Positions 6,241-26,749 of a stretch of DNA of 52,934 nt are shown one piece after another. Within the stretch, counting starts at the first letter, position 1, and each line of letters opens with the position of its first letter. Position numbers and translations under genes: made by a program. This stretch comes from Candidatus Nomurabacteria bacterium (GTDB lineage Bacteria > Patescibacteriota > Minisyncoccia > Phycocordibacterales > UBA9973), in assembly GCA_026395895.1 (NCBI GenBank), contig JAPLXV010000022.1:1-52934 (forward strand), written 5' to 3'. The notes below the pieces were generated by a model. It saw only the letters and a program-made list of their open reading frames with translations, was not told the DNA's origin and ran no database searches.

Positions 6241-7722
6241 ATGGGAAAGAAATATTACCCGACAATTGGGCTTGAAATACACGCTGAGTTGAAGACAAAC
6301 ACGAAAATGTTTTGTAGTTGCAAGAATGACCCTGATGAAAAAAAACCGAATGTAAATATTTGTCCTGTTTGCATGGCGCATCCGGGAGCTTTGCCAGTCA
6401 TTAATAAAAAAGCTATCGAAAATGTTATCAAAGTTGGTTTGGCGATAGAAGGGAAAATTGCTGATTTTACAGAATTTGATAGAAAAAATTATTTTTATCC
6501 AGATATACCGAAAGGTTATCAGATTTCTCAATATAAATATCCGATAGTTTCCGGGGGGCATTTGGCAGATTTTGACGTCACTCGAGTGCATTTAGAAGAA
6601 GATACGGCTAATAATAAACATTTCCCCGAAGCCCAGCTTAGGGGAGTTGGAGTTTCCCCTAAGCTGGGCTTCGGGGAAGAAGGATACTCTTTAATCGATT
6701 TCAATCGCGCTGGGGTTCCTTTGATGGAACTCGTGACAGAGCCGGTGACTTTCGAAGATGCTGAAAAAGCTGCCAAGAGCGCTTCTTCGTTTGCAAAAGA
6801 ACTCCAGTTAATACTTTGGTATCTTGGAGTGTCCGAAGCGAATATGGAAAAAGGAGAAATGAGAGTGGAGGCAAATATTTCGGTTTCTGAAAATAAGAAA
6901 AAATTAGGTACGAAAGTGGAAGTAAAAAATTTGAACTCTTTTAAGAGTGTAGAAAAAGCCATCAAATTTGAATTAGATAGAATGATAAAACTTTCTGAGG
7001 ATGGTAAAGATCAAGAAATAGTACAAGAAACTCGAGGTTGGGATGAAGGAGGACAAAAGACATTTTCACAGAGAAAAAAAGAATCTAGTCATGACTACAG
7101 ATATTTTCCAGAACCAGATTTACCAAAAATGAAACTTCACGAAGCTTTTGATTTGGAAAAAATGAAAAAAGAATTACCAGAATTGCCTCAGGCAAAAAGA
7201 TTGAGATATAAAAAAGATTTTGGGATTAAAGATGAAGACATAGAAAGTTATATTAATGATTTTGAGCTAGGAAAATGGTTTGAAGAAATTGCGATATTTT
7301 TAAAAAATCCTGAGGAAGTTAAAATAGCTTCAAACTATATTACTTCTGATTATTTGGGAATCAAAAAAACGCAGACGGAAGCAAGGCTTCCGTCTGCGGG
7401 AAACTTTGCAGAACTTATAAATTTGGTTGCAGATAATAAAATTTCTTCGCGTGTGGCGAAAGACATTTTAGCTATGATTGTTTTGAAAGATGAATCTCCG
7501 CTTAAAATCGCGACAGAAAAAAGTTTATTGCAGAAAAACGACGAGAAAGAAGTAAAAACTATCGTAGAGAAAATAGTTAAAGAAAATCCAGAAGTTGTGG
7601 CTACTTATAAGGCTGGTAAAGAAAACGCCATAATGTCCTTGGTTGGGAAAGTGATAAAAGAAAGTAAAGGTAGTGCCAATCCACAAATTGTTATCAAAAT
7701 GTTGAAGGATTTGCTAAAATAG
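6241..7722 (+). CDS. gatB: Asp/Glu-tRNA amidotransferase subunit B
   Basis: IGLEIHAEL, FDRKNYFYPD, HLEED, DFNRAGVPLME, YRYFPEPDL. Confidence 0.97.
   Translation: MGKKYYPTIGLEIHAELKTNTKMFCSCKNDPDEKKPNVNICPVCMAHPGALPVINKKAIENVIKVGLAIEGKIADFTEFDRKNYFYPDIPKGYQISQYKYPIVSGGHLADFDVTRVHLEEDTANNKHFPEAQLRGVGVSPKLGFGEEGYSLIDFNRAGVPLMELVTEPVTFEDAEKAAKSASSFAKELQLILWYLGVSEANMEKGEMRVEANISVSENKKKLGTKVEVKNLNSFKSVEKAIKFELDRMIKLSEDGKDQEIVQETRGWDEGGQKTFSQRKKESSHDYRYFPEPDLPKMKLHEAFDLEKMKKELPELPQAKRLRYKKDFGIKDEDIESYINDFELGKWFEEIAIFLKNPEEVKIASNYITSDYLGIKKTQTEARLPSAGNFAELINLVADNKISSRVAKDILAMIVLKDESPLKIATEKSLLQKNDEKEVKTIVEKIVKENPEVVATYKAGKENAIMSLVGKVIKESKGSANPQIVIKMLKDLLK
6622..6678. repeat. In-frame palindromic element in gatB
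   Basis: Perfect 24-bp IR ttccccgaagcccagcttagggga, 9-nt loop; 57 nt encoding FPEAQLRGVGVSPKLGFGE. Confidence 0.92.
7370..7398. repeat. Second in-frame palindrome in gatB
   Basis: cgcagacggaagc-aag-gcttccgtctgcg, perfect 13-bp stem. Confidence 0.8.
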
Positions 7723-7726
7723 AAGG

Positions 7727-8587
7727 ATGAAAACATTACGTGAATACATAAAAGAAGCGGAAGAAAAAGGAGTGGCTATCGGCCATTTTAATATTTCTAA
7801 TCTAGAAGGGTTACATGGGATTTATAATGCCGCGAAAAAATTGAGTTTACCTATTGTAATCGGTCTTTCAGAAGGGGAAGAAAATTTTGTTGGCAGAGAA
7901 GAAGCAGTAGCTCTTATTCAGGCTATTCGTCAGAGAGATAATTATCCAATATTTTTAAATGCTGATCATCATTATAATTTTGAATCGGTAAAATTAGCGC
8001 TGGATGCGGGTTATGACTCTGCTATTATTGATGCTGTAAAATTACCTCTTGAAGAAAATATCATACTTACTAAAAAATGTGTGGATTATGCGAAAAGTTT
8101 AAACAGAGAAGTGCTTATAGAAGCTGAACTTGGTTTTATTGGAACTTCTTCAAAATTGTTAGACGAAATTCCAGAAGGAATTTCGGAAGCAACAATGACT
8201 AAACCTGAAGACGCGAAATATTTTGTAGAAAAAACTAGTATTGATTTACTTGCACCATCTGTGGGGAATGTGCATGGAATGGTCAAAGGAGGAAATCCGA
8301 GATTAGATATCGAAAGAATAAAAAAGATTCGTGAAGCTTGTGGTGTGCCTTTAGTCTTACATGGTGGTTCCGGAATTTCTGATGAAGATTTTACTGATGC
8401 TATAAAAGCGGGGATTTCTATGATTCACATAAATACTGAAATACGTGTAGCTTATAGAGAAGCTCTAGAAAAATATTTGAAAGAAAATCCAAAAGAAGTT
8501 GCGCCTTATAAAACATTACAACCAGCCGTGGAAACCATAGAAAAAGTAGTCGAAGCTCGATTGAAACTTTTTAATCATATAAAATAA
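7727..8587 (+). CDS. fba: Class II fructose-bisphosphate aldolase
   Basis: DH motif (NADHH), EAELG, GNVHG, LVLHGGSG, INT. Confidence 0.92.
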   Translation: MKTLREYIKEAEEKGVAIGHFNISNLEGLHGIYNAAKKLSLPIVIGLSEGEENFVGREEAVALIQAIRQRDNYPIFLNADHHYNFESVKLALDAGYDSAIIDAVKLPLEENIILTKKCVDYAKSLNREVLIEAELGFIGTSSKLLDEIPEGISEATMTKPEDAKYFVEKTSIDLLAPSVGNVHGMVKGGNPRLDIERIKKIREACGVPLVLHGGSGISDEDFTDAIKAGISMIHINTEIRVAYREALEKYLKENPKEVAPYKTLQPAVETIEKVVEARLKLFNHIK

Positions 8588-8666
8588 AAATGTATTCACA
8601 GCTTTTCGAAACAATTAGAAACTTTTTGCACTGGATTCAAATTTTTTTTGACTAATATAAATTTAT

Positions 8667-9197
8667 ATGGAATATTTAGATATATGTGATAGTGAAGGAA
8701 ATTTGTTAGGAATAAAGAAAACTAAAAAAGAAGCTCATGACAAAGGACTTTGGCATAGAGCAGTTCATGTTTGGATTATTAATTCAAAGAAAGAAGTATT
8801 GATTCAAAAACGTTCTCATTTAGTGGAAAATCATCCAAATCTATGGGATATTTCAGCAGCTGGACATGTTTCTGCTGGAGAAGATTATATAACTTCAGTT
8901 TTAAGAGAAACAGAAGAAGAAATTGGTTTAAAACTTAAACCAGAAGATTTTATCCGAATTGGAATAGTAAAAAATATATCTGCGAGGAGGGGGTATATCA
9001 ACAATGAAGTAGACCCAGTTTACATTGTAAAAATGGATTTAGAAGTAAATAAGATAAAAAAACAAGAAGAAGAAGTTTCTGAAATAAAATTTATATCATA
9101 CAAAAAACTTGAACAAATTATTAAAAGCAATGACCCGACTTTTGTGCAACATCCAGAGGAATATAAATTACTCTTTGATTATATTAGTAAAAATTAA
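8667..9197 (+). CDS. NUDIX hydrolase (IPP isomerase-like)
   Basis: H..GLWHRAVH, Nudix box GHVSAGE...RETEEEIG. Confidence 0.88.
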   Translation: MEYLDICDSEGNLLGIKKTKKEAHDKGLWHRAVHVWIINSKKEVLIQKRSHLVENHPNLWDISAAGHVSAGEDYITSVLRETEEEIGLKLKPEDFIRIGIVKNISARRGYINNEVDPVYIVKMDLEVNKIKKQEEEVSEIKFISYKKLEQIIKSNDPTFVQHPEEYKLLFDYISKN

Positions 9198-9760
9198 AGT
9201 TTTAGTTTATTTTCTAAATACGATTCAGGGTAGCCTTTTTTGATTCGTTTATTTTCTATATCTATAATCCCAAGATTTTCTAAAAATTTTATGCATTCTT
9301 CTTTTGCTTCTTTTTCATCCTTAAAATCTCCTTTGGCTTCTGCTTCTATAAAATAGCCTAACCCTGTGACGTTATCTAACGCGACTTCAATATCACTACA
9401 CATCCAGTATTCTCTGTATTTTTCTATAGTCACAGATTTTTTAAAATCTAAGAACCCCAAGATTTTTTCTAATTCACTTTTGTCTGAAACTTCTGTCTCA
9501 TATTCTTCTGCATAATCATAATCTCCATCTTCTCTCTGATTTACAGATCTAGTGTATTCCCAAACAACCTTATCTGGATCGGTTCTTATGCGGAGCCATT
9601 CTACTGGGTGAGGTTTTCTTGCAAAAAAATCTCTGTGACTGGGAACATAATAATCATCAATTTGTTTTATGGATTTTATCAATTTTCCTATTTTTGAGAC
9701 TTTTTCTTTAATTTCTTCAAAATTGTCTATTTTTACTTTTATTTCAACTTCTATATTCAT
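9194..9760 (-). CDS. CYTH domain protein (class IV adenylate cyclase-like)
   Basis: ExExK at N-terminus, Q.D.YY, LRIR, E.ET, K.RE, D.V.GLG.FIE.E; start reassigned to MNIEVEIK. Confidence 0.88.
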   Translation of the reverse strand: MNIEVEIKVKIDNFEEIKEKVSKIGKLIKSIKQIDDYYVPSHRDFFARKPHPVEWLRIRTDPDKVVWEYTRSVNQREDGDYDYAEEYETEVSDKSELEKILGFLDFKKSVTIEKYREYWMCSDIEVALDNVTGLGYFIEAEAKGDFKDEKEAKEECIKFLENLGIIDIENKRIKKGYPESYLENKLKL

Positions 9761-9799
9761 GTTTTTATTATAGCAGAAAATGTTATAATAATAAAATAG

Positions 9800-11614
9800 A
9801 TGAAAGAAGAAATACAAAGATTTTTTAAAGGGGAAGTGGAAGATAGTGATGAAACACTTTCAAAATATTCTCGGGATGCGAGTATTTTTGAGGTAAGACC
9901 AAAATTAGTGCTTTTCCCGAAAGATTCAAAAGATGTTCAAAATTTAGTGAAATGGGTTTCTGAAAATAAAAATAAATATGCAGACCCGGAGAAAAATAAG
10001 GATTGGAAAAATCTTTCTATTACCGCTCGTTGTGCGGGGACAGATATGTCTGGTGGGGCAATAGGGGAGTCTTTAGTTTTAGATTTTACTCGGCATATGA
10101 ATAAGTTAGTGGCATTTCCCCCCTCTACTTTACAAGGAGAGGGTCGGGGTGAGGTGGATAAAATTACCGTCCAGCCCGGTATGTTCTATCGAGATTTTGA
10201 AAAAATAACTTTAGAAAAAGGATTGATTTTGCCTTGCTATACCGCTTCCAAAAGTATCAATGCTATGGGAGGAATGTTTGGCAATAATTCTGCTGGAGAA
10301 CGAACTCTTAAATATGGAAAAACAGAAGATTATATTTTAGAAGCAAAAGTTGTTTTTTCTGATGGTAATGAGTATGTCATTAAACCGCTTTTTCAAGATG
10401 AATTAACGAAAAAAATCGCACAATCGAATTTTGAAGGGGAAATTTATAAAAATGTTTATAATCTGATAAATAAAAATAAAGAAGAAATAAGTCAGGCAAA
10501 ACCACAAGTCAGTAAAAATTCTGCCGGCTATTACATCTGGAATGTCCTAGAAAACAAAAACCAGAATCTAAAAAATTTTTCAGGTCCTCGGATCTCCGGG
10601 GCCCCGAACCCCGGCCAGACCATTCAAAATCTTTCAAATTTTAGTTTTTTTGATTTAAACAAGCTTCTGGTGGGTTCGCAGGGGACTTTAGGTATAGCCA
10701 CAGAAATTACCTTTAAACTCGTTCCCAACCCTAAATATTCTAAACTAGTAGTTGTTTTTATGAATAATTTGGAACCCTTAGGACGTCTGGTGGATGAGAT
10801 TTTAGTATTTAATCCAGAAACATTAGAAGCTTATGATGACAAGACGATGAAGTTAGCGGTTAAGTTCTTTCCAGATTTTCTAAAAAACAAAGGTTTTATC
10901 GGTATGATTAAATTTATGTGGAGTTTTTTACCAGAATTAAAAATGATGCTCACCGGAGGTTTTCCTAAATTAATTCTTCTAGCTGAATTTGCGGGAGATG
11001 ATGAAATTTTGGTGGATAAACAATGTGTTCTTCTAAAAGAGAGAATAAAAGGTTTTAAATTGAAAGTTCATATTACTAAATCAGAAATTGAAGCAAATAA
11101 ATATTGGGATATTAGAAGAGAGAGTTTTGCTCTTTTACGAAAACATGTTGCCGGTCTTCATACCGCTCCATTCATAGACGACATCATAGTTCGTCCAGAA
11201 TTTTTGCCAAAATTTATTCCAGAACTTAATCAAATTCTTAAACAATATAATTTAACTTACACCATAGCAGGGCATGCTGGAGACGGTAATTTTCATATTA
11301 TTCCTTTGATGGATTTTTCGCGTCCTGATACGGTAAAAATTATCATTGAACTTTCGGAAAAAGTTTACGACCTTGTTTTAAAATATCATGGCTCAATTAC
11401 TGCTGAACATAACGATGGTATTATTCGCACTCCTTTTTTGAAGAAAATGTATGGGGAGAATATTGTTGCTCTTTTTAAAGAAATAAAAAATATTTTTGAC
11501 CCTAAAGATGTTTTTAATCCAGGTAAAAAAGTTACTTTGGAAGATGGAAGTGGCACAAAAGAATATATGACTAAACATATTGTCTTGGAACATAATATCA
11601 TTCACAGAGTTTAG
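9800..11614 (+). CDS. FAD-linked oxidoreductase (GlcD/D-lactate dehydrogenase family)
   Basis: AGTDMSGG, GG...NNS.G, GSQGTLG, GHAGDGNFH, AEHNDG, FDP..VFNPGK. Confidence 0.9.
   Translation: MKEEIQRFFKGEVEDSDETLSKYSRDASIFEVRPKLVLFPKDSKDVQNLVKWVSENKNKYADPEKNKDWKNLSITARCAGTDMSGGAIGESLVLDFTRHMNKLVAFPPSTLQGEGRGEVDKITVQPGMFYRDFEKITLEKGLILPCYTASKSINAMGGMFGNNSAGERTLKYGKTEDYILEAKVVFSDGNEYVIKPLFQDELTKKIAQSNFEGEIYKNVYNLINKNKEEISQAKPQVSKNSAGYYIWNVLENKNQNLKNFSGPRISGAPNPGQTIQNLSNFSFFDLNKLLVGSQGTLGIATEITFKLVPNPKYSKLVVVFMNNLEPLGRLVDEILVFNPETLEAYDDKTMKLAVKFFPDFLKNKGFIGMIKFMWSFLPELKMMLTGGFPKLILLAEFAGDDEILVDKQCVLLKERIKGFKLKVHITKSEIEANKYWDIRRESFALLRKHVAGLHTAPFIDDIIVRPEFLPKFIPELNQILKQYNLTYTIAGHAGDGNFHIIPLMDFSRPDTVKIIIELSEKVYDLVLKYHGSITAEHNDGIIRTPFLKKMYGENIVALFKEIKNIFDPKDVFNPGKKVTLEDGSGTKEYMTKHIVLEHNIIHRV
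10118..10155. repeat. In-frame palindromic remnant in oxidoreductase
   Basis: ccctct..ctt/aag..agaggg plus ggggtgaggt tail shared with 45808-45829; encodes PPSTLQGEGRGEV. Confidence 0.65.
10556..10650. repeat. In-frame MITE-like insertion in oxidoreductase
   Basis: Imperfect 24-nt AT-rich IR around a very GC-rich core; encodes NQNLKNFSGPRISGAPNPGQTIQNLSNFSF between conserved AGYYIW and DL..L.VGSQGTLG. Confidence 0.6.
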
Positions 11615-11651
11615 ATTTGCTTTTTGGCTTTTTTTATATATAATGATGACT

Positions 11652-12350
11652 ATGTTTGTAATTAAGGCTAAAAAGAGAAATGAAAGTGTTAACGTAGATA
11701 CTTTAAGAAAAACGGGAGAAATTCCGGCTGTTTTTTATGGAGCAGGAAAAACTTCTACTTCTATCTCTCTTTCAATTATTGATTTTAAAAAAATCTGGCG
11801 AGAAGCCGGAGAATCTTCCACTGTCAAAATATCAATGGGTGATAATAATATTGATGTGCTTATTCACGAAGTGCAAGTTCATCCAGTAACCGAAGAGCCA
11901 ATTCATGTAGACTTTTTGGTTATAGATATGAACAAGAAGATAAAAGTTAATGTACCGCTTGAATTTATTGGAGTCTCAAATGCAGTCAAAAATGGATTAG
12001 GAAACCTTGTGAAAGTGCTTCATGAAGTAGAAATTGAAGCTTTGCCAAAAGATCTTCCTCATAATCTTGAAGTTGATATTTCTAAACTTGAAACAGTAGA
12101 TGACCAAGTTTTTGTTTCTGATATAAAATTACCGACCGGAGTTGTTGTTATTGAAAATGAACATGATGTTGTGGCTTCTATCGTTCTTCAGGTAGAAGAA
12201 AAAGAAGAAGTTGTAGTACCTGTTGATTTGTCTGCAATTGAGGTTGAAAAGAAAGGCAAGAAAGAGGAAGCTCCGACGCTCGAAGAGGTCGGAGTCCCGA
12301 TCTCTGACGATAGTCAGAGCGTCGGGAAAGGTAAGGAGGAAAAAAAATAA
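11652..12350 (+). CDS. rplY: 50S ribosomal protein bL25 (Ctc form)
   Basis: IPAVFYG, Q.HPV...PIHVDF, LP.DLP..LEVDIS.L; start reassigned 7 nt after TATAAT. Confidence 0.93.
   Translation: MFVIKAKKRNESVNVDTLRKTGEIPAVFYGAGKTSTSISLSIIDFKKIWREAGESSTVKISMGDNNIDVLIHEVQVHPVTEEPIHVDFLVIDMNKKIKVNVPLEFIGVSNAVKNGLGNLVKVLHEVEIEALPKDLPHNLEVDISKLETVDDQVFVSDIKLPTGVVVIENEHDVVASIVLQVEEKEEVVVPVDLSAIEVEKKGKKEEAPTLEEVGVPISDDSQSVGKGKEEKK
12271..12327. repeat. In-frame double-hairpin element in rplY tail
   Basis: ctccgac..gtcggag followed by tcccga.ctctgac-gata-gtcagag..tcggga; 57 nt within the Glu/Lys-rich tail. Confidence 0.8.
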
Positions 12351-12386
12351 CCCCAGTAGTAGAGCAAAGCTCACTACGGGGCAGGG
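12351..12386. repeat. Intergenic palindrome, ccccgtagt...actacgggg family
   Basis: cccc(a)gtagt-agagc-aaa-gctc-actacggggcaggg directly after the rplY stop. Confidence 0.75.
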
Positions 12387-12416
12387 AATTTATTCAATTA
12401 TGATATAATAAAGACT

Positions 12417-13772
12417 ATGGTAAAGAAATTTTCCATAGTTTTTATTTTTATACTTTCAATATTGATTTTCCCGACGCATAAATCGTATGCTGTTTTTGAT
12501 TGTTTGACTTTAAATAACTCTTCTTCCCAAACTGATAAAGATTTTTGTAAAAATGAACTTGCTCAAATAGAAGCTCAACTTACTGATTTGTTAAATAAAC
12601 AAGCAGAACAACAAAAACAATCAGGCACCTTGAAAGGCGATGTATTAGCATTAACTGCTCAAATCAATGCTCTGAAAACAAAAATTAAAGCTAGAGCTTT
12701 AAAAATTGCGCAACTGAAGGTTGATATAAATGATAAAGTTAAACAAATTACAACCTTATCTGAGAAAATAAGTCGTGAACATGAATCTCTTGCTCAACTA
12801 TTACGCAACACGAATGATTTTGATAACCAAGATTTTATTTATTTAATATTTTCGGATGAAAGTCTCTCTGCTTTCTATAGCGACCTAGAATCCTATAATT
12901 CAATTAAACAAGCAATAAAAAATTCTGTTGATATAATTAATGGAGTAAAAGCGCAAACTGAAGTTACCAAAACTGGTTTAGAAAAACAACAAAACGCAGA
13001 AACTGATGCTAAAGCTGAATTAGAAAGCGCCCAAAAACAAGTTGCCAAATCTGAAGCGGATAAAAAACAACTGCTTGCCATTTCTAAAAACAAAGAAGCA
13101 GAGTATCAAAAACTAGCGGCCCAAAAGAAAGCTCAAGCTGATAAAATTCGTAGCGCCTTGTTCGCTTTGGCTGGTATTTCTCAGAAAATAGAATTCGGTA
13201 CTGCTCTTCAATATGCCAATGAAGCTAAAACTAAATTTGGTATTGATCCAGCGTTTCTGCTTGCTGTTCTTACACAGGAAAGTAATTTAGGAGCAAATGT
13301 TGGACAATGTTATTTAACAAATCCGGATACAGGGGCGGGAGTCGGAAAAAATACAGGAGTAGTATTTTCAAATGTAATGAAACCAACACGTGATGTGACT
13401 CCATTTTTAGAAATTACTACTGCTCTTAGTTTTAATGCATATCAAACTGCTGTCTCTTGTCCAATCGCTGGTGTGTCAGGCTGGGGTGGAGCGATGGGTC
13501 CAGCCCAATTTATTCCATCAACTTGGAAATTATTTGAAGATAGGTTGCAAAGTATTCTAGGATATTTTGCTAATCCTTGGTCTCCACGAGACGCTTTTAT
13601 GGCTTCAGCTATGTATCTAACTGACCTCGGAGCAGTAGGTAATAGTGCCAGTGCGCAAAATAAAGCAGCTTGCAGATATTATGGTTCTAGTGGATCAACC
13701 TGTTCTTATAGTCGCAGTGTTATGAAATATAAATCTACCATTCAAAGTAATATAAATTTGCTTTCAAGCTAA
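12417..13772 (+). CDS. Secreted coiled-coil protein with C-terminal lytic transglycosylase domain
   Basis: Signal peptide, long coiled coil, catalytic QES, GAMGPAQFIPSTW, A..YL. Confidence 0.85.
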   Translation: MVKKFSIVFIFILSILIFPTHKSYAVFDCLTLNNSSSQTDKDFCKNELAQIEAQLTDLLNKQAEQQKQSGTLKGDVLALTAQINALKTKIKARALKIAQLKVDINDKVKQITTLSEKISREHESLAQLLRNTNDFDNQDFIYLIFSDESLSAFYSDLESYNSIKQAIKNSVDIINGVKAQTEVTKTGLEKQQNAETDAKAELESAQKQVAKSEADKKQLLAISKNKEAEYQKLAAQKKAQADKIRSALFALAGISQKIEFGTALQYANEAKTKFGIDPAFLLAVLTQESNLGANVGQCYLTNPDTGAGVGKNTGVVFSNVMKPTRDVTPFLEITTALSFNAYQTAVSCPIAGVSGWGGAMGPAQFIPSTWKLFEDRLQSILGYFANPWSPRDAFMASAMYLTDLGAVGNSASAQNKAACRYYGSSGSTCSYSRSVMKYKSTIQSNINLLSS

Positions 13773-13795
13773 AATTGTGATAATCTGATTCAGTT

Positions 13796-14014
13796 ATGAA
13801 AAAAGACATTCACCCAAAATATAATATAAAAACTAAAGCTACCTGCGCTTGTGGAGCTGTTTTTGAAGTCGGTTCCACTATGCCTGAAATTAAAATGGAA
13901 ATTTGTAGTCATTGCCATCCTTTTTATACTGGTAATGATAAAGTTATGGATACTGCTGGGCGCGTAGAACGTTTTAATAAGCGTCGAGCTCTATCAGCTA
14001 AAGTTAAGAAGTAA
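13796..14014 (+). CDS. rpmE: 50S ribosomal protein bL31 (Zn-binding type)
   Basis: [29 protein letters not shown]. Confidence 0.97.
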
Positions 14015-14100
14015 AATTCTCCTCTTGAGGAGTACCCTTTAGGGGGAGGTGGAAATAATATCCACCCCGACGCAAGCGTCACCCCTCAAGGAGGGGAATT
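14015..14100. repeat. Multi-branched palindromic intergenic element
   Basis: aattctcctcttgagg ... cctcaaggaggggaatt ends; internal ggtgga/tccacc and gacgc/gcgtc stems. Confidence 0.75.
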
Positions 14101-14104
14101 AAAC

Positions 14105-15073
14105 ATGAACTTCAATTTAGATGAACTAAAAAAGAATCACAACACGAGCTACTTGGCCAGTATTTTGGAGCGCTTGGATAAGGAAGAAATTGAAGTAAGA
14201 GAAATGCTTACGAAAGATGATTCTTTAAAAGAAATGGTAGATGGGGAATTAAAATCTATTCAGGAGCAAAGAGAGGCGACAGAAAAACAAATTCAAGATA
14301 TTTTGGACAAAGATGTTCAAGAAGAAGAAATGGCTAATGAAGTAGTGCTGGAAGTAAGAGCCGGAGCCGGAGGAGACGAAGCTTCTCTTTTTGCTTGGGA
14401 GTTAGCGCATATGTATGAATTATTTTCTACCGTCAAAGGTTGGCAGTGGAAAACAAATTACGAATCAAAAAGTGAATTGGGTGGATACAAAGAAGCCAGT
14501 TTTGAAATAAAAGGAAAAGATATTTATAATCAATTACGTTATGAAACTGGCGTGCATCGAGTGCAACGTATTCCGGCTACGGAAAAAAATGGCCGAGTGC
14601 ATACTTCCACCGCCTCAGTGGCTGTGCTTCCAATTCGCAAAAAAGTTTTATTTGAAATCAATCCTGCTGATTTAGAAATGGAATATTCTCGTTCTGGTGG
14701 AAAGGGCGGACAGAATGTAAATAAAGTGGAAACAGCTGTGCGATTAATTCATAAACCAACAGGCCTGGATGTGCGTTCTACTAACGAAAGAAGCCAGCTG
14801 GCTAATCGCGAAAAGGCATTGATGATTTTGACTGCCAAACTTCAGCAACTAAAAGAAGAAGAGGAAGCAAAAAAATATGCTGGTGTTCGCAAAGATCAAA
14901 TTGGAACAGGTGATCGTTCCGAAAAAATTCGCACCTATAATTTTTCACAAGATCGCGTAACCGACCATCGCATTAAAAAATCTTGGCACAATTTGCCAAA
15001 AATAATGGCAGGATATATTGAAGAAATAGTTGAAGCATTGCAGTCTGGTGAGACGGGAGATGAAGAGGAATAA
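14105..15073 (+). CDS. prfA: Peptide chain release factor 1
   Basis: GGDEA, GVHRVQR, PxT recognition motif (PAT), GGQ, IRTYN. Confidence 0.95.
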
Positions 15074-15120
15074 AATTTAGTATTACTTGCTAGGTTTTAA
15101 TGTTGTAGTATAATTTATAT

Positions 15121-15330
15121 ATGAGTAAAAAAATAGACAAAACATCCAGTAATTTCAATAAAATAATGAGATCTTTTAAAGATAAATGGGTAGCTGTATC
15201 CCCAGACTATTCTAAGGTTTTTGCTAGTGCCAATACACTAAGTGGTGTTATGAATAAGATTGAAAAAGATGCAAAATTAAAAATATTTAAAGTAGTATCT
15301 TTAAATATGATTTATTCTCCTTTTAACTAA
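15121..15330 (+). CDS. Small hypothetical protein (DUF5678-like)
   Basis: KWVAV motif; 69 aa directly upstream of an aspartyl protease; TATAAT 6 nt before ATG. Confidence 0.6.
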   Translation: MSKKIDKTSSNFNKIMRSFKDKWVAVSPDYSKVFASANTLSGVMNKIEKDAKLKIFKVVSLNMIYSPFN

Positions 15331-15333
15331 AAT

Positions 15334-15744: not shown

Positions 15745-15754
15745 ATTAATATAA

Positions 15755-17229: not shown

Positions 17230-17260
17230 AAAAAGCCCATAAGCTTTTGGTGGGCTTTTT
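17230..17260 (+). terminator. Intrinsic terminator
   Basis: aaaaagccca...tgggcttttt. Confidence 0.75.
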
Positions 17261-17458
17261 ATGTTTTTACCAATTTTTTGCTTTTATTTTATTTTTATGT
17301 AATACTTATTGTGTAGTTTCTCGTAGAAGTTTAAGTTTTCGTTAAAGAGATTTGAGCGACAAGAGTATCTACGTTCGTCAAAAGCGGAATTTATTCGCCT
17401 CTGGCGGGCATTATAATTATTTTTTGCTCGTTTTTTAAAAATGAGAGAAGTATAAAAT

Positions 17459-17797: not shown

Positions 17798-17811
17798 TCT
17801 ATAATTAGTGC

Positions 17812-17842
17812 GCAAAAATCGCCCTTAGGGCGATTTTTGTTT
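17812..17842 (+). terminator. Intrinsic terminator
   Basis: caaaaatcgccc-tta-gggcgatttttg followed by T residues. Confidence 0.75.
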
Positions 17843-17877
17843 GCAGATAAAACATATATGTGATATAGTCTTTTCAG

Positions 17878-17929
17878 GGGCGTGTAGTTCAGTTCCGCCA
17901 GAGGCGGATAAAGTCCGAATGCTGTCCTG
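17878..17929 (+). pseudogene. Duplicated 5' half of tRNA-Ile with palindrome in the D-loop
   Basis: gggcgtgtagttcagt identical to tRNA 5' end, then tccgccagaggcgga, then gaatgctgtcctg (tRNA: gaacgctgtcctg). Confidence 0.85.
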
Positions 17930-17942
17930 TGAGTTTTTAAAA

Positions 17943-18014
17943 GGGCGTGTAGTTCAGTGGTAGAACGCTGTCCTGATAAGACAGAGGCCGTAGGTCCGAT
18001 TCCTACCACGCCCA
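17943..18014 (+). tRNA. tRNA-Ile(GAT)
   Basis: Acceptor gggcgtg/cacgccc, anticodon arm ctgtc-ctGATaa-gacag, T arm gtagg-tccgatt-cctac. Confidence 0.93.
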
Positions 18015-18015
18015 C

Positions 18016-18279
18016 ATGGCGGAAATTGAAAATAATAAAAGACAAACAGGCCCTTGGTGGAAACCAGCAGTTGAAATATTTAGTGAAATTTCTACGTGGA
18101 TTATTGTACCCATAGTGTTGGCATTGGTTGGAGGCAAAGCCTTGGATGCGCATTACGGGACAAAACCGATTATTTTTCTTTCATTGGCAGGATTTGGATT
18201 TCTGATTACATGTTTTGGTATATTTCGGATTGTGAAGAATTATATGAAAAAATTGAAAGAAATAGAAAAGAAAAATTAG
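18016..18279 (+). CDS. AtpZ/AtpI family protein
   Basis: Two TM helices, G..LD...GT.P motif, first gene of the atp operon. Confidence 0.8.
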   Translation: MAEIENNKRQTGPWWKPAVEIFSEISTWIIVPIVLALVGGKALDAHYGTKPIIFLSLAGFGFLITCFGIFRIVKNYMKKLKEIEKKN

Positions 18280-18282
18280 TTT

Positions 18283-19173
18283 ATGGAAACACAAATACAA
18301 CAAGAACAGATTAGTCATGAGACAACTCTTTTTGCAGAGCCAGTTTTTCATTTTCAAAATTTTGCTATCACCAATGCTCTTTTGACTAGTTGGATTGCTG
18401 TCATTGTCATTATTATTTTATCTTTTGTTCTTCGTTCTAAACTGAAAGAAATCCCTGGTAAGATTCAAAATTTTTTTGAAATGGTTATTGAAGGCGCGCT
18501 TTCTATGTGTGATCAAGTGACAAATGACAGAGCTCTTTCTATGAAAATTTTTCCGATTGCTATTTCGGTTTTCTTTTTTATTTTAGTAAATAATTGGTTT
18601 GGTATACTTCCTTTGGGTGGTTTCGGACTTTTAGAGAGAGGAAAGGAAGGACTTTCTTTTGTCCCATTCCTGCGCGGAGGCACGGCGGATATAAACACCA
18701 CTATTGCTTTGGCTACTATGGCCGTGATCGGAGCCAATATTTTCGGTGTTTTTTCGATTGGTATCTGGAAAACTTTCAATAAATATGTTAATCTAAAAGT
18801 AATTGGACAAATAGGAAAAAAAATACGCAAAGATCCTACTGTTATTATTGTTGCTCCAATTACGTTCTTTGTTGGATTAATTGAAATTGTAGGCGAATTC
18901 GCCAAAATTGCTTCTCTCTCTTTTCGTCTCTTCGGAAACGTATTTGCTGGAGAAGTTTTACTTGTTTCCATGGCGGCCTTGGTTGGATATATTGTGCCAA
19001 TACCTTTTCTTTTTCTAGAAATATTGGTAGGAGTAATTCAAGCGCTTATTTTTTCAATTTTACTGGTTGTTTATTTTACTATTGCATCCACTGATCATGA
19101 TGAACATGATGAGCATGAAAAAAAACCTGCCTCGTCAAGTCAAGGCGGGCATGAGGTCGTTATTATTAATTAA
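18283..19173 (+). CDS. atpB: ATP synthase Fo subunit a
   Basis: TADINTT, SLSFRLFGNVFAGE, IQALIF. Confidence 0.96.
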   Translation: METQIQQEQISHETTLFAEPVFHFQNFAITNALLTSWIAVIVIIILSFVLRSKLKEIPGKIQNFFEMVIEGALSMCDQVTNDRALSMKIFPIAISVFFFILVNNWFGILPLGGFGLLERGKEGLSFVPFLRGGTADINTTIALATMAVIGANIFGVFSIGIWKTFNKYVNLKVIGQIGKKIRKDPTVIIVAPITFFVGLIEIVGEFAKIASLSFRLFGNVFAGEVLLVSMAALVGYIVPIPFLFLEILVGVIQALIFSILLVVYFTIASTDHDEHDEHEKKPASSSQGGHEVVIIN

Positions 19174-19395
<222 letters not shown>

Positions 19396-19407
19396 GTGAA
19401 AATTAAT

Positions 19408-19514
19408 GAACGGAGTGAATATAATTTTCCTTACCCTGTTAAATAAATTTTGCGGAGCAAAATTTGTCCTGCAGGACATTTAACAGGGTGGAAATTTATA
19501 TAGTCGCTCTGCTC
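19408..19514. repeat. Nested palindromic intergenic element
   Basis: accctgttaaat/atttaacagggt stem enclosing aaattttgc-gga-gcaaaattt and tgtcctgcaggaca, inside a longer imperfect hairpin. Confidence 0.8.
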
Positions 19515-19528
19515 TTTATAAATTAACC

Positions 19529-20020
19529 ATGGATTCAATCATCAACACATTTCACATAGACTTTAAAATTATTATTGCCCAAATTTTTAATTTTGGGATT
19601 GTTTTTGTAGTTTTATATATTTATGCCCTGAAGCCTTTAAATAAATTAATGAAGGAACGTTCAGAAAAAATAGCTAAAGGGGTGGATGATGCAAAATCAA
19701 ATGCTCAGATTCTAAATAATACCAAAGCTGAGTACGAAGAAGCTTTAACTAAAGCGCGCAAGGAAGCAGATAAAATATTTCAAGAAGGTAAAAAAGAAGC
19801 AGAAACCAAAAAAGCTTTAATGTTGGAAAAAGCAAAAGATGAAGTGGCTTTAATGATTGAAAGCGGAAAAAAGAATTTGGAAAATGAAAAAATAAAAATG
19901 GTGGCTGAAGCCAAAGAAGAAATTACTTCCTTGTCTGTAAAAATAGCAGAAAAAATATTAGGTAAAAATATTGATGGACATTTTGATCAGAAAACAATAA
20001 AAGAATTGGATAATATTTAA
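19529..20020 (+). CDS. atpF: ATP synthase Fo subunit b
   Basis: QIFNF TM, KPL...M.ER...I, coiled coil. Confidence 0.93.
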   Translation: MDSIINTFHIDFKIIIAQIFNFGIVFVVLYIYALKPLNKLMKERSEKIAKGVDDAKSNAQILNNTKAEYEEALTKARKEADKIFQEGKKEAETKKALMLEKAKDEVALMIESGKKNLENEKIKMVAEAKEEITSLSVKIAEKILGKNIDGHFDQKTIKELDNI

Positions 20021-20024
20021 AACC

Positions 20025-20435
20025 ATGGCAACTTTATTAAACAATGACATAGCCCGCGCGATTTACTTGGTTTCAAAAGATAAAACGCATACCGAACTTC
20101 ATGATGTAAATAAAAAAGTGATGGAATTTCTAGCTCGCAGACGATTACTATCAAAAACTCCTGACATATTAGAAAGATTAGATAAAATAATAAATTATGA
20201 AAGTGAAAAAATTGTAGTAAAAGTATCAAGTGCTCGAAAATTGAAAGAAGAACTGAAAAAAGAACTCATATTTTTTTTAAAGAAACGTTATAAAGTGAAA
20301 GAAGTTGTCCTCACCGAAACATTGGATGAAAAATTATTAGGAGGAATGAGATTAGAAATAAATGACGAGATAATTGATTTAACAGTAAAAAATAAAATTA
20401 AAAAATTACAAGAACATTTAATAAGAAAAATATGA
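20025..20435 (+). CDS. atpH: ATP synthase F1 subunit delta (short)
   Basis: V.SA..L, D..LLGG....I.D..ID; operon position. Confidence 0.88.
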
Positions 20436-21934
20436 GCACCAATTATATAGTAGAAAATTTAAAAAAAGATATAGATAATTTTTCATCACAGATAAAAGCC
20501 GAAAAAGTTGGTCATGTCTTGGAAGTTTTTGACGGTATCGCAAAAATATCTGGACTTTCGGATATAAAATCGTCTGAAATGGTTACTTTTCCTAATGGTG
20601 AAATGGGTGTGGCTCTCAACCTAGAAGAGGATACTGTGGGAGTTATCATTTTTGATGATTTTTCAAAAATAAAAGAAGGGGATGAAGTGAAAGCTACTGG
20701 AAAAATTTTGGAAGTTCCGGTTTCAGACAATATTATAGGAAGAGTAGTAAATGCTTTAGGTGTAGAAATTGATGGAAAAGGAGTAATCAAAGCAGACAAA
20801 ACCTATCCGATTGAAAAAGTTGCTCCGGGAGTTATTACTCGTCTTTCTGTGGACAAGCCAGTGGCTACAGGGATTAAAGTCATTGATGCAATTATTCCTA
20901 TCGGTCGTGGACAGCGTGAACTTATCATCGGTGACCGTCAAACTGGTAAAACTGCTATTGCTGTGGATACGATTTTAAATCAAAAAGGTCAAAACATGAT
21001 TTGTGTTTATGTTTCTATCGGCCAGAAAGATTCTAAACTTCGCAAAATTCAAACTCGTTTAGAAAAGGGTGGCGCTATGGCTTACACTATTATTGTATCT
21101 GCGGGATCTTCAGAACCGGCTCCATTGTCTTATATTGCTCCATATACCGGAGTTTCTATCGCGGAATATTTTATGGATCAAGGAAAAGATGTTTTAATAA
21201 TTTATGATGACCTTTCTAAACATGCCGTAGCATATCGTGAAATTTCTCTTTTACTCCGACGTCCACCAGGCCGTGAAGCATTTCCTGGAGATGTTTTTTA
21301 TTTGCACTCTCGTTTACTTGAACGCGCTTGCCGAAGAAATCAGGAATATGGAGGTGGTTCCATTACTGCTTTACCAATAGTGGAAACCCAAGCCGGAGAC
21401 GTGACTGCTTATATTCCAACCAATGTTATTTCCATTACGGATGGGCAAATCTTTCTTGAAACAGATCTTTTTTATAAAGGTATTCGTCCAGCGGTGAACG
21501 TCGGTCTCTCAGTTTCTCGCGTAGGGTCAAAAGCACAAATTAAAGCAATGAAAAAAGTAGCCGGAACTTTGAAATTAGACTTGGCCCAATATCGCGAACT
21601 TGAAGCTTTTGCTCAATTTGGTTCTGACCTTGATAATGCCACCAAACAACAACTTGAACGTGGTAAGCGCGCAGTGGAAGTGTTAAAACAACCCCAATAT
21701 GCCCCGATGGCCGTAGAACGCCAAGTAGCAATACTTTATGCTTTGACTAAAGGTTATTTGGATGATGTGCCGGTAGATAAAATTAAAGAATTTGAAGAAG
21801 GTTTAATAAATTATACAGAAAATAAAACTAAAAAGTTTTATAAAGAAATTACTGAAACAAATATGTGGACCGATACAGGCGAAGCAGAATTAAAAAAAGC
21901 GATAGAAGATTTTAAGACAAGTTTTGTGAAATAA
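20432..21934 (+). CDS. atpA: ATP synthase F1 subunit alpha
   Basis: [29 protein letters not shown]. Confidence 0.98.
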
Positions 21935-21935
21935 A

Positions 21936-22253
21936 ATGCTTGGAAAATCATCACAAATTAATAATGATTTTTGGGAAGAGTCTTCAGAATTTGAACTTAA
22001 AATGGGACATTTTTTAAATGGAAGAATGAACAAAGACGAAGCTGAAGATTTTGTTAATGAATGTTTGGAGGATAAAAAGAAATTAGAAGATCTTATAGAT
22101 TCTCAAAGAATTCATAATATATTACAAAAATTAATAAATGATTCAGATTTTTTAGATAAAATTAAAAAAATGGATATTGAGCATCAAAGACAAGAAAAAG
22201 TAAAAAAAATATTGAAAGATATTTATGGTGTTGATTTTAATAACCTTAATTAA
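21936..22253 (+). CDS. Hypothetical protein inserted in atp operon
   Basis: 105-aa acidic ORF tightly packed between atpA and the Bro-N gene; no recognisable motif. Confidence 0.6.
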   Translation: MLGKSSQINNDFWEESSEFELKMGHFLNGRMNKDEAEDFVNECLEDKKKLEDLIDSQRIHNILQKLINDSDFLDKIKKMDIEHQRQEKVKKILKDIYGVDFNNLN

Positions 22254-22256
22254 TCT

Positions 22257-23096
22257 ATGGCAAGTACTAAAGAAAAAATTAAAAATATTGCATTATTTGA
22301 AGGAAATAAAGTCCGTCGTGTTTGGTATGAAAACAAATGGTTTTTTGTTATTTCCGATATTGTTTTTGTGTTAACTGAATCAAATGATGTAAAACAATAT
22401 GTTAAAAAAATGAGAGTAAGAGATCCAGAGCTTTCTGTCAAGTGGGGTACAATTTGTACCCCACTTCCAGTTGTTTCAAGGGACGGGAAACAGAGAGAAG
22501 AATTAACGGCTGATTTGGAGGATATTTTTCGTATTATTCAATCCATCCCATCCCCAAAAGCTGAACCATTCAAACAATGGCTTGCGAAAGTCGGAAAGGA
22601 AAGAGTAGATGAAATCCAAAATCCAGAACTTGCCATGGAACGAATGAAAAGTTTATATGAACAAAAAGGTTATCCCAATGATTGGGTTGCAAAAAGGATG
22701 CGTGGTATCGCTGTTCGTAATACCTTGACGGATGAATGGGATAAGCGGGGACTTAAAAAAGGAATTGAGTACGCAATTTTGACTAATGAGATAATACAAG
22801 GAACTTTTGATATGAAAGTGGATGATTATAAAAAACATAAAAATCTTTTTGTCCAACATAATTTGCGCGACCATATGGGAGATATTGAGCTTATATTGAC
22901 CATGCTTGCCGAAGCAACAACAACCAAGCTTTCTGTGGACCGTGATTCAAAAGGTTTTAATAAGTTACATAATGATGCAAAAGAAGGAGGAGAAATAGCA
23001 GGAGAAACACGCAGAAAAATAGAAAATCGTTCTGGTAAAAAAATATCAACAAAAAATAATTTTTTAAATATTAAAAATAAGAAGAGATTAAAATAA
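22257..23096 (+). CDS. Bro-N domain protein (phage antirepressor-like)
   Basis: VRRVW...W.F.I.D.V..LT, RIIQSIPSPKAEPFK.WLA, LTDEW, NLRDHM. Confidence 0.88.
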   Translation: MASTKEKIKNIALFEGNKVRRVWYENKWFFVISDIVFVLTESNDVKQYVKKMRVRDPELSVKWGTICTPLPVVSRDGKQREELTADLEDIFRIIQSIPSPKAEPFKQWLAKVGKERVDEIQNPELAMERMKSLYEQKGYPNDWVAKRMRGIAVRNTLTDEWDKRGLKKGIEYAILTNEIIQGTFDMKVDDYKKHKNLFVQHNLRDHMGDIELILTMLAEATTTKLSVDRDSKGFNKLHNDAKEGGEIAGETRRKIENRSGKKISTKNNFLNIKNKKRLK

Positions 23097-23115
23097 AATA
23101 TGTTAATATAATTTT

Positions 23116-24066
23116 ATGGCATCAACCAAAGAAATTAAAAGAAGAATAAAGAGTGTGAAGAGCACAAAGAAAATCACTAAAGCGATGGAACTTGTGGCTG
23201 CTTCCAAAATGAAGAGAGCAGTCTCTTCAACTCTGGCTTCACGTTTGTATGCGGAATATTCTTGGGAAGTTTTAACTTCCATTGCTAAAAATACAGAAAA
23301 GATAACTCATCCACTTTTTGTAGAACGTGAAGTAAAAAATATTTTACTTCTTCTCATTACTTCCAATCGTGGACTCTGCGGTGCATATAATACGCAGGTT
23401 ATTAAAAAAGTTTTGGCTTTTCTTCAAAATTCCCAAAAGACGGTCTTTGGGGAAGAATCCAAAAGACCGTCTTTTGGGATTGATATTGTGGCTATCGGCA
23501 AAAAAGGAGACGTAATGATGCGTCGGGTAGGCAAAAATATTATTGCTAGTTTTTTTGAATTGCCAAGCAATGTTTCTCTTTTTGATATTATTCCAATATC
23601 TGAATTGGCGGTCAATGAATACAATCTTTTAAATTATGACAAAGTTTTGGTTGCTTATACTGATTTTGTTTCTGCTCTTTCCCAAAAACCAAATATTAAA
23701 CAAATCATTCCAGTTTCTAAAACAGATTTGAAAGAATTAATTGAAAAAGTTGCGGAAGCCGGTCTTCCGCGAGAAGAACGCGGAAGACCGGCTTCCGCAG
23801 AGAAACCAGTAGATTATTTATTCGAAGGAGATCAAGAAGCACTTATTGGTTCATTAGCAGAAAAAATAACTCGTATGCAAATATATCAAATGTTTCTTGA
23901 ATCTAACGCTTCCGAACAATCTTCTCGAATGGTCGCTATGAAGAATGCTTCAGATGCTGCAGGAGAAATGATAGATGATTTAACATTAGTATTTAACAAA
24001 GCTCGCCAGAGTAATATTACCAGAGAAATTTCGGAAATAAGTGCTGGTATGGCGAGTGTGAATTAG
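23116..24066 (+). CDS. atpG: ATP synthase F1 subunit gamma
   Basis: KITKAMELVAASK, RGLCGAYN, SEQSSRMVAM, RQ..IT.EI.EI. Confidence 0.97.
   Translation: MASTKEIKRRIKSVKSTKKITKAMELVAASKMKRAVSSTLASRLYAEYSWEVLTSIAKNTEKITHPLFVEREVKNILLLLITSNRGLCGAYNTQVIKKVLAFLQNSQKTVFGEESKRPSFGIDIVAIGKKGDVMMRRVGKNIIASFFELPSNVSLFDIIPISELAVNEYNLLNYDKVLVAYTDFVSALSQKPNIKQIIPVSKTDLKELIEKVAEAGLPREERGRPASAEKPVDYLFEGDQEALIGSLAEKITRMQIYQMFLESNASEQSSRMVAMKNASDAAGEMIDDLTLVFNKARQSNITREISEISAGMASVN
23431..23479. repeat. In-frame palindromic doublet in atpG
   Basis: Perfect 18-bp IR tcccaaaagacggtcttt / aaagaccgtcttttggga; encodes SQKTVFGEESKRPSFG. Confidence 0.88.
23751..23799. repeat. Second in-frame palindromic doublet in atpG
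   Basis: Perfect 21-bp IR tgcggaagccggtcttccgcg, 7-nt loop; encodes AEAGLPREERGRPASA. Confidence 0.92.
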
Positions 24067-24074
24067 AGCGGGAA

Positions 24075-24112
24075 AAGGCCTTGCCTTAAAAGGAGCCCAA
24101 AGGCAAGGCCTT
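24075..24112. repeat. Intergenic palindromic doublet (copy 1, before atpD)
   Basis: aaggccttgcctt-12 nt-aaggcaaggcctt. Confidence 0.85.
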
Positions 24113-24159
24113 AAAGAGCTAAAAATTATTATTAATATTATAAAAATAACAAAAAGTAA

Positions 24160-25515
<1,356 letters not shown>

Positions 25516-25530
25516 AAATTTAAAATAGCT

Positions 25531-25567
25531 AGACCTTGCCTTAAAGGGAACCCAAAGGCAAGGCCTT
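25531..25567. repeat. Intergenic palindromic doublet (copy 2, after atpD)
   Basis: 34/37 identical to 24076-24112. Confidence 0.85.
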
Positions 25568-25593
25568 GAGGAGAAAATTTTAGAAATAAATTT

Positions 25594-26037
25594 ATGAAAC
25601 AATTAAAATTAAAAATAATAACACCAGAAAGATTAATCCTTGAAGAAATGGTAGATCAAGTAAGTTTACCGACTACTCTCGGCGAAATTACTGTTTTGCC
25701 GGACCATATTCCACTAATTACTGGACTTACTTCTGGTGATGTGGTGGCTTTAGTAAATGGTGAACATGTACCGATGGCCGTTGTTGGTGGATTTTTGGAA
25801 GTAAAACAGGATGAGAATGGAATTACCAATGTGGCTGTTTTGGCTGATTTTGCTGAACATATGTCAGAACTTTCTGATGAAGCGATAGAAAAAGCCAAAG
25901 CTCGTGCCGAAGAACTCAGGAAACAAATGGAAAATAAAGAAGTTGTTGATTACGAACATTTTGCTGCAGAACTTGAACGCTCTCTCACTCGGGTAAAAAT
26001 CGCCGACAAGTGGAGAACAAAGAAATATAGAAAATAA
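25594..26037 (+). CDS. atpC: ATP synthase F1 subunit epsilon
   Basis: IITPE, GEITVLPDHIP, GGFLEV. Confidence 0.95.
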   Translation: MKQLKLKIITPERLILEEMVDQVSLPTTLGEITVLPDHIPLITGLTSGDVVALVNGEHVPMAVVGGFLEVKQDENGITNVAVLADFAEHMSELSDEAIEKAKARAEELRKQMENKEVVDYEHFAAELERSLTRVKIADKWRTKKYRK

Positions 26038-26038
26038 G

Positions 26039-26749
26039 ATGAGTAAATTTTATGTAGTGGCGACGCCAATAGGGAATATGGGAGACATCACTCTTCGGGC
26101 TATTGAGACGCTCAAGGAGGTGGATTTGATATTGTGCGAAGATACTCGAGAAACAAAAAAAATTTTACAGAAATATAATATAAATACTCCGACCATGAGT
26201 TATCATAGTCAAAGTAAATTAAATAAAGTAGATAAAATTTTTGCATTATTAGAGGAAGGAAAAAATTTAGCTTTAGTTTCGGATGCTGGTACTCCCACTA
26301 TTTCTGATCCAGGGGCAATGCTAATCGCAAAAATCAAAGAAGTTTCCCCGAAGCCCAGCTTAGGGGAATTTCCCCTAAGCTGGGCTTCGAGGATAGAGGT
26401 TATACCCATTCCCGGTGCTACAGCTGTCATCGCTGCACTTTCGGCTTCGGGATTACCAACACATGAATTTACTTTTCTTGGTTTTCTTCCGCACAAAAAA
26501 GGGAGAGAAACTTTATTTAAAGAAATTGCCGAATCAAAACGTACCATGGTTTTTTATGAATCTCCACATCGTATTTTGAAAACATTAAAATCCCTACAAA
26601 AATTTTGTCCCAACAAAAAAGTCTGTTTGGCTCGTGAAATTACTAAAATTTATGAAGAATTCAAAACCGGTTCTCCATCTGAACTCCTAGAATACCTAAC
26701 CCAAAATCCTATTCACCAAAAAGGGGAGTTTACGGTGCTAGTTTCCTAA
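26039..26749 (+). CDS. rsmI: 16S rRNA C1402 2'-O-methyltransferase
   Basis: VATPIGN..DIT.RA, CEDTR, SDAGTP.ISDPG, YESPHR, REITK.YEE. Confidence 0.95.
   Translation: MSKFYVVATPIGNMGDITLRAIETLKEVDLILCEDTRETKKILQKYNINTPTMSYHSQSKLNKVDKIFALLEEGKNLALVSDAGTPTISDPGAMLIAKIKEVSPKPSLGEFPLSWASRIEVIPIPGATAVIAALSASGLPTHEFTFLGFLPHKKGRETLFKEIAESKRTMVFYESPHRILKTLKSLQKFCPNKKVCLAREITKIYEEFKTGSPSELLEYLTQNPIHQKGEFTVLVS
26343..26393. repeat. In-frame palindromic element in rsmI (same family as gatB 6622)
   Basis: 25-nt arm tttccccgaagcccagcttagggga identical to gatB 6621-6645, read in a different frame (SPKPSLGEFPLSWASR). Confidence 0.92.

Follow-up and report, generated by a model that had tools for sequence, protein, structure and literature searches.

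The closest described relatives of the system reported here are the REPIN-RAYT systems, or REPtrons, exemplified by the TnpA-REP enzyme of E. coli (structure 4ER8) and by the REPINs of Pseudomonas. Their parts are repetitive extragenic palindromes (REPs), REP doublets forming hairpins (REPINs) and a REP-associated tyrosine transposase (RAYT). We analyzed a 52,934-nt stretch of DNA from Candidatus Nomurabacteria (hereafter the window), which is contig C18 of a 35-contig genome (G000) of 672,149 bases and 34.4% GC, and in which the genes gatB and rsmI each carry a hairpin doublet of one repeat family, designated family A. As in REPIN-RAYT systems, tens of copies of a short imperfect palindrome are present, its inverted doublets can form a single long hairpin, a Y1/HUH gene whose structural model best matches 4ER8 is bracketed by the same palindrome, and each enzyme paralogue has a hairpin of its own. 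Unlike the repeats of those systems, about half of the family-A copies are intragenic and in frame (14 of 27 loci lie in open reading frames [ORFs]), rather than extragenic, and the family lacks a GTAG or CGTC tag. The enzymes differ as well, in that a hairpin copy lies in frame inside the enzyme's own gene, the sequence scores fall under curated family cut-offs, and six paralogues are found in 672 kb, whereas 1.3-1.8 copies per replicon are given for RAYT groups in the available text of PMC5581495.

REPs bearing GTAG or CGTC tags have also been described within genes for known proteins (Di Nocera et al. 2013, PMC3733652). According to the accessible part of that paper, more than half of these intragenic REPs are dimers or groups encoding 20-30 residues, their hosts include tRNA synthetases and repair genes, and they are described for Opitutus terrae and Rickettsia conorii (RPE-4 and RPE-6, which are equated with CGTC REPs), among others. 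The same part reports no transposase for the CGTC type and makes no mention of a REP inside a RAYT gene. Family A resembles these REPs in lying within genes for known proteins; however, as that text presents them, they are a minority within largely extragenic families of large genomes, whereas here an untagged family with a flanked Y1 gene occupies a 0.67-Mb genome.

Transposons of the IS200/IS605 group (IS608, ISDra2) have the HUH/Y1 fold that is predicted here, and recognition of a hairpin on single-stranded DNA would be expected in both cases; in contrast to these elements, the dispersed family-A copies are doublets without a gene and have no conserved target tetranucleotide. In behavior, rather than by any comparison of sequence, family A also looks like the Rickettsia palindromic elements (RPEs), in-frame palindromic repeats in the housekeeping genes of a reduced genome that are tolerated as extra loops. 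RPEs were reportedly described by Ogata and colleagues in 2000, RPE-1 being said to measure about 100-150 nt, and we know of no cognate enzyme for them, whereas the family-A unit is 23-24 nt long, the doublet about 50 nt, and a candidate cognate gene is present. A literature search (full text, supplements aside) for RAYT, REPIN or the enzyme name together with Patescibacteria, candidate phyla radiation or Parcubacteria gave no such paper among the matches listed, and those taxon names do not occur in PMC6006769. The system is best read as a largely intragenic, untagged, multi-paralogue variant of REP/REPIN-RAYT with a self-contained hairpin, and its combination of repeat plus enzyme is of a kind already known.

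The doublets in gatB and rsmI

The two host genes are intact (Table 1). The first matches GatB_N (1.3e-99) and GatB_Yqey (5.9e-30) in Pfam and has 3AL0_B as a solved relative (2.6e-114); the second belongs to TP_methylase, and its best solved relative is E. coli RsmI (5HW4, 7.5e-51), in which a gap stands opposite the insert. A sequence-only reading of the window had drawn attention to a 25-mer that is identical in the two genes and is followed in each by an inverted partner. This was borne out by a pattern search of the window, which returned the 25-mer exactly as the left arm of both doublets, on the plus strand, and its reverse complement as the right arm, with one mismatch in gatB and two in rsmI. 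These four matches at up to three mismatches compare with a mean of 0.00 in 100 dinucleotide-preserving shuffles. The right arm in rsmI runs to 26395, about two bases further than the end at 26393 that had been given for it.

When delimited by complementarity, the gatB arms (6622-6645 and 6655-6678) are 24 nt long, 100% complementary and 9 nt apart, and the rsmI arms (26345-26368 and 26370-26393) are 24 nt long and 96% complementary; the folding energy of the gatB loop region is -31.9 kcal/mol with DNA parameters. Both copies have the REPIN layout, with two units inverted around a short spacer (3-9 nt) and able to form one long hairpin. The rsmI copy is read one frame away from the gatB copy, and translation of both ORFs agrees with the peptides that had been assigned to the 25-mer, FPEAQLRG in GatB and SPKPSLGE in RsmI. 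The element had also been held to be stop-free in more than one frame; on each strand, stops (TAG and TAA) occur in a single frame, and the other two frames are open.

Table 1. Coordinates of the doublets, their host genes and the candidate enzyme gene (window positions unless a contig is named)
Feature	Coordinates	Strand	Length	Details
gatB host gene	6241..7722	+	493 aa	Intact; collinear with orthologues on both sides of the insert
Family-A hairpin doublet (REPIN-like) in gatB	6621..6679			Left arm 6621-6645, 9-nt spacer 6646-6654, right arm 6655-6679; translation FPEAQLRGVGVSPKLGFGE
Second, single hairpin in gatB	7370..7398			Family that flanks the RAYT-like gene on contig C19
rsmI host gene	26039..26749	+	236 aa	Intact
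Family-A hairpin doublet in rsmI	26343..26395			Left arm 26343-26367, 3-nt spacer, right arm 26371-26395 (2 mismatches); translation SPKPSLGEFPLSWASRI
RAYT-like HUH/Y1 gene	C14:4205-4918		237 aa	Outside the window

Family A in the genome

Each arm is itself a short imperfect palindrome, composed of a 10-bp stem TCCCC[G/T]AAGC, a 3-nt loop and then GCTT[A/C]GGGGA, and is one unit of a family repeated throughout the genome. A motif search counted 36 units in 25 elements, and the addition of variant copies brought the number of loci to 27. Two-unit elements number 12 by motif grouping and 14 with the variants included; in seven doublets the arms are identical or nearly identical to those of the window copies, the difference lying mainly in the spacer. 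The 13 loci outside long ORFs are intergenic or at ORF edges, often directly 3' of a stop codon. Intragenic copies are rarer than expected from an estimated coding fraction of 0.909 (binomial p 1.8e-7), which is consistent with the removal of harmful insertions.

The host genes, as classified by Pfam, encode a MurD-like ligase, a second Mur ligase, MnmA, a XerC/D-like integrase, an R3H protein, LepA, a DNA-alkylation repair protein, Fmt, RsmH and GatA; the other intragenic copies lie in the genes for GatB and RsmI, in the transposase-like gene on contig C14 and in one ORF without a Pfam match. The intragenic doublets are 48-57 nt long, all of them keep the frame, and a tabulation of their reading shows the two open frames to be used about equally (SPKPSLGE...PLSWAS or PEAQLRG...SPKLGFGE). 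The combination of terminal inverted repeats and target-site duplication that defines miniature inverted-repeat transposable elements was not seen in family A, whose whole element is a palindrome.

A RAYT-like gene bracketed by family A

The Y1/HUH gene on contig C14 is flanked by the same repeat, as RAYT genes are: one family-A unit lies upstream (4050-4072), one inside the gene (4475-4497) and one over the stop codon (4911-4933). The internal unit is in frame and directly follows the HUH-motif stretch PNHFHIYITS; the stretch that it encodes is an insertion that four paralogues lack. Aligning 18 relatives of the protein shows no variation at H83, H85 and Y156, and the alignment of a paralogue to 4ER8 suggests that Y156 is the catalytic tyrosine. 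An AlphaFold (AF2) model of the protein has a mean predicted local distance difference test (pLDDT) score of 82.8 and a predicted template modeling score of 0.84, with pLDDT below 50 in the hairpin-coded loop stretch, residues 93-104. When this model was compared with the PDB by Foldseek, the top match was 4er8_A (E 4.7e-7, probability 1.00), the E. coli REP-associated tyrosine transposase bound to a REP hairpin, and the transposases of ISDra2, IS608 and IS200 followed at ranks 2-40. The protein is thus predicted to combine the HUH motif and the tyrosine with a RAYT fold.

A search of the genome with Pfam Y1_Tnp, which missed the C14 gene, identified five paralogues, on contigs C15, C33, C16, C27 and C19, and three or four of these have private hairpins. 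The C16 gene is bracketed by GC-rich hairpins of its own. The C19 gene (C19:12042-12819, locus L063) has its own GC-rich hairpin on both sides and twice in the coding sequence, and the C27 gene (C27:1356-2054; 1277-1962 in locus L062) has a low-GC, GTAG-bearing hairpin upstream, twice inside, where it encodes SPTTK-like peptides, and at the 3' end. In sequence searches of the PDB, the C15 paralogue found 4ER8 weakly (E 0.005) and the C16 paralogue found no match.

Relatives of the C14 protein (E<=1e-20) are present in 88 of 121 genomes of the genus, often in several copies. Thirty of these loci were fetched and the gene was located by pattern in 29, of which 27 have an internal hairpin about 270-300 nt into the gene (26 of 28 when L076, from the unpublished genome G072, is left aside). 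As read from the listing, the hairpin is repeated upstream and downstream at about 20 of the 29 loci, and several others are cut by contig ends. Its sequence varies among loci: the hairpin of the G006 orthologue (78% identity) resembles family A, those of orthologues with 66-76% identity retain a C-rich foot (TTCCC or CCCC, in most cases TTCCCC...GGGGAA) with the inner stem changed on both sides, and more distant relatives have other feet. Family A itself, sought with at most one mismatch, occurs in five of the 121 genomes, with 29 units in G000, 10 in G075, 7 in G006 and one each in G053 and G090.

Gain and recurrence at the same loops

The GatB insert is absent from all 25 orthologues compared, which come from 13 genera and point to DRGD or DKGD as the ancestral loop, and four species of the genus have other short GC-rich hairpins at the same site. 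Among metagenome GatB loci, the site was readable in 79 of 80; the loop has 4-5 residues in 52 of these and 7-24 in 27, and many of the 27 long loops are strong single or double hairpins of unrelated sequence. The table of this metagenome scan contains no match above 84% identity to the window GatB, and the nearest GatB in a tree is L128, at 86% over the kept columns.

The tree was built with FastTree after removal of the loop and contains 102 of 106 sequences, the other four having been omitted because the site pattern or the 300-residue frame was not found. Alleles were scored as hairpin-bearing if the loop had at least 7 residues and a folding energy of -8 kcal/mol or lower. The 19 alleles so defined need 19 changes, at least 11 of which are forced by well-supported branches; they show no clustering relative to shuffles, being scattered singly among short alleles, and the closest relatives of the window GatB are short alleles. 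Thus, the GatB loop is a recurrent landing place and the copy in the window is a lineage-specific gain. A single ancient insertion with turnover in place is ruled out for this loop by the tree.

At the RsmI site, none of 27 orthologues has the window sequence, and most are empty. Within the genus, five different doublets (G000, G006, G010, G007 and G001) and several single hairpins (G011, G005, G008, G003 and G009) occupy the site; those of G000 and G006 are two different doublets with the same boundaries, which leaves room for turnover in place there. Among the other family-A hosts, the gatA insert is confined to G000 in a comparison with four relatives, the fmt copy is common to G000 and G006, and the lepA copy is common to G000, G006 and G075, with G004 and G017 empty. 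The shared copies differ in both arms together, with loop CCA/TGG versus CTG/CAG in the lepA copy of G075 and CCCC/GGGG versus CCTC/GAGG in the fmt copy of G006; therefore, the long palindrome has been kept. Like RPEs, family A makes in-frame palindromic insertions in protein genes that are absent from orthologues.

The sequence-only reading had concluded that the shared arm reflects recent mobility of DNA rather than selection on protein. The occurrence of the same DNA in unrelated genes and in two frames, two of the three frames being stop-free, together with the lack of conservation of the peptides among the orthologues compared, supports this view and points to spread at the DNA level, not protein selection. 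"Recent" holds only with a qualification: the gatB copy was gained after divergence from relatives with 84-86% identity in GatB, whereas the lepA copy is common to three species.

Two further observations concern these hosts. The lepA locus of G010 (L112) has an AT-rich tandem repeat (TTTCCAGTTTCCAAT...) at the site of the family-A doublet. The single hairpin at gatB 7370-7398 involves no change of length relative to orthologues, several species having another, equally long hairpin at that position and others none; this equal-length replacement is unaccounted for by any explanation tried.

Other hairpins and features in the window

GC-rich palindromic doublets of two other families lie at 23431-23479 and 23751-23799, in frame in the gene for the ATP synthase gamma subunit (ORF 23116-24066; Pfam ATP-synt, 2.6e-84). 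The family of the second (TGCGGAAG...CTTCCGCA) recurs at 41498-41543 as a perfect palindrome with 20-nt arms, in the topoisomerase I gene (ORF 40409-42682, minus strand), and an imperfect palindrome with 27-nt arms, 81% complementary, is found at 46628-46692 in the dihydrouridine synthase gene dus (ORF 45878-46957). Related intergenic hairpins (AAGGCCTTGCCTT...AAGGCAAGGCCTT) stand on either side of ORF 24163-25515, at 24075-24112 and 25531-25566, with a third copy on contig C3; Logan contigs join 24087 to 25555 through them. Another hairpin, CCCCTCTCC...GGAGAGGGG (and CCTCCCCC...GGGGGAGG), is very abundant, with dozens of copies in the genome, including 45784-45816 and 10121-10143 of the window, and looks like an intergenic terminator of this genome or another REP family. 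A tRNA at 37755-37838 on the minus strand (Rfam, 61 bits) overlaps the 5' part of ORF 36418-37872, and the TTG start of that ORF is therefore probably placed too far upstream.

Discussion

We consider it probable that family A belongs to a REP/REPIN-RAYT system, that its doublets persist in permissive loops owing to the absence of stops from two of their three frames, and that, as part of the same reading, the RAYT-like HUH/Y1 single-strand DNA transposase on C14 is the cognate enzyme. Such an enzyme would recognize the folded hairpin on single-stranded DNA, then cut and rejoin it, and doublets would in this way spread around the chromosome. With about 91% of the genome coding, most landings would be within genes, and the survivors would be those with frame-keeping lengths (24 or 48-51 nt) that avoid the stop-bearing frame and sit in tolerant surface loops. 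The inserts, whose frames are intact, would then be translated as floppy loops. Two open frames, in-frame lengths and tolerant loops support such a survival filter, and we infer that selection, rather than targeting, lies behind the loop positions.

Several findings weigh against this reading. Its weak point is the step in which the C14 enzyme moves the doublets, which is proposed by analogy to the E. coli system and to IS200/IS605 biology. The flanking REPs of classical RAYT genes are inverted, whereas the three hairpins at the C14 gene share their loop orientation. The C14 protein scores 21.2 bits with Pfam Y1_Tnp, below the curated cut-off of 23, and when the five paralogues were scanned with NCBIfam, REP_Tyr_transpos (NF047646) was the best match for them but at 31-63 bits against a cut-off of 80; sequence does not establish membership in NF047646 or Y1_Tnp. 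A PDB sequence search with family profile A1 matched no chain. The link between repeat and gene is not strictly one-to-one: although G075 has 10 family-A units, its closest C14 orthologue (66% identity) is flanked by a different hairpin, and none of the listed family-A units of G075 and G006 lies beside a Y1 gene found there. The pooled flanks of 25 copies contain no target motif beyond T/Y at -1/-2 and no target-site duplication; an apparent similarity of right flanks, GAAGGA following the gatB and lepA copies, is seen in 2 of 8 doublets. Finally, the main family-A unit, read directly, contains no GTAG or CGTC tag or its complement; tags of this type are present in some variant copies and in other hairpin families of the genome.

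The same lack of a target motif or duplication would be expected if selfish palindromic repeats of the RPE type had spread without a dedicated enzyme, through recombination, gene conversion or replication template switching between hairpins, with the RAYT-like gene as merely one more landing site. In-frame copies in many housekeeping genes also fit this account, as does the presence in G075 of family A without a matching flanked gene, and conversion between arms would explain why the two arms of the lepA and fmt copies have changed in concert. However, with 36 units in 672 kb, chance would hardly place three of them within 900 bp, bracketing and inside one Y1 gene, and 27 of 29 related loci repeat the three-site layout with locus-specific hairpins; we therefore regard enzyme-free spread as a minority prospect, well behind a REP/REPIN-RAYT system. 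It is less likely again that the hairpins, rather than being mainly mobile DNA, are retained because they themselves have a function, whether as RNA or DNA structure (in pausing, in mRNA stability, or as a site for gyrase or a nucleoid protein) or as a useful peptide loop. Here the paired changes that keep the long palindrome in lepA and fmt, the hairpins carried by the same GatB and RsmI loops in many species, and the terminator-like position of about half of the loci directly after stop codons are set against the missing insert in the GatB orthologues, the scatter of hairpin-bearing GatB alleles on the tree and a peptide that differs by frame. Moreover, an Rfam covariance scan of the window at the gathering score matched only 5 tRNAs and no family on the elements.

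We see very little chance that a GIY-YIG homing endonuclease cassette moved the doublets: one such gene is present (C15:12952-13161), but contig C15 has no family-A unit and the family brackets the Y1 gene instead. With no family-A unit near the one clear GIY-YIG gene, the link was rejected. Slightly more improbable still is an artifact in which the palindromes were made or misplaced by the assembler. Logan contigs from three studies do end at the palindrome centers, 6650 and 26374, and false joints in them link copies (for example, 6679 to 26344), but k-mer graphs are expected to break at inverted repeats. Moreover, both host genes keep their reading frame and are collinear with orthologues to either side of the insert, contigs from independent runs join one arm to its flank (6650-10622 and 22647-26374 in X1, 25499-26374 in X2), and orthologous copies occur in separately assembled genomes.

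The fixed in-frame copy of its own hairpin in each enzyme gene of the C14 clade may point to self-recognition, either as autoregulation or as a protected master copy; we know of no such self-recognition in classical REP/RAYT systems. A wider proposal, which we put forward tentatively and think may well prove wrong, is that RAYT-type enzymes and hairpin doublets are a main, unrecognized source of extra loops in the essential proteins of ultra-small genomes, with a few permissive loops hit repeatedly by different enzyme and hairpin lineages and with enzymes that recognize the hairpin in their own gene. One GatB loop has had at least 11 separate events, and one RsmI loop has at least five types of hairpin.

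To our knowledge, work on systems of repeat plus domesticated transposase has been almost entirely on Proteobacteria, and such systems are regarded as extragenic. The present case would show that they can be largely intragenic where intergenic space is scarce, and would give the many small, lineage-specific insertions found in essential proteins of the candidate phyla radiation a concrete mechanism and a named candidate enzyme. For annotators and phylogeneticists it carries a caution, since such loops would be mobile DNA and uninformative as protein characters. The repeated use of the same loops may also provide a natural map of where GatB, RsmI, LepA, Fmt and other proteins tolerate insertions.

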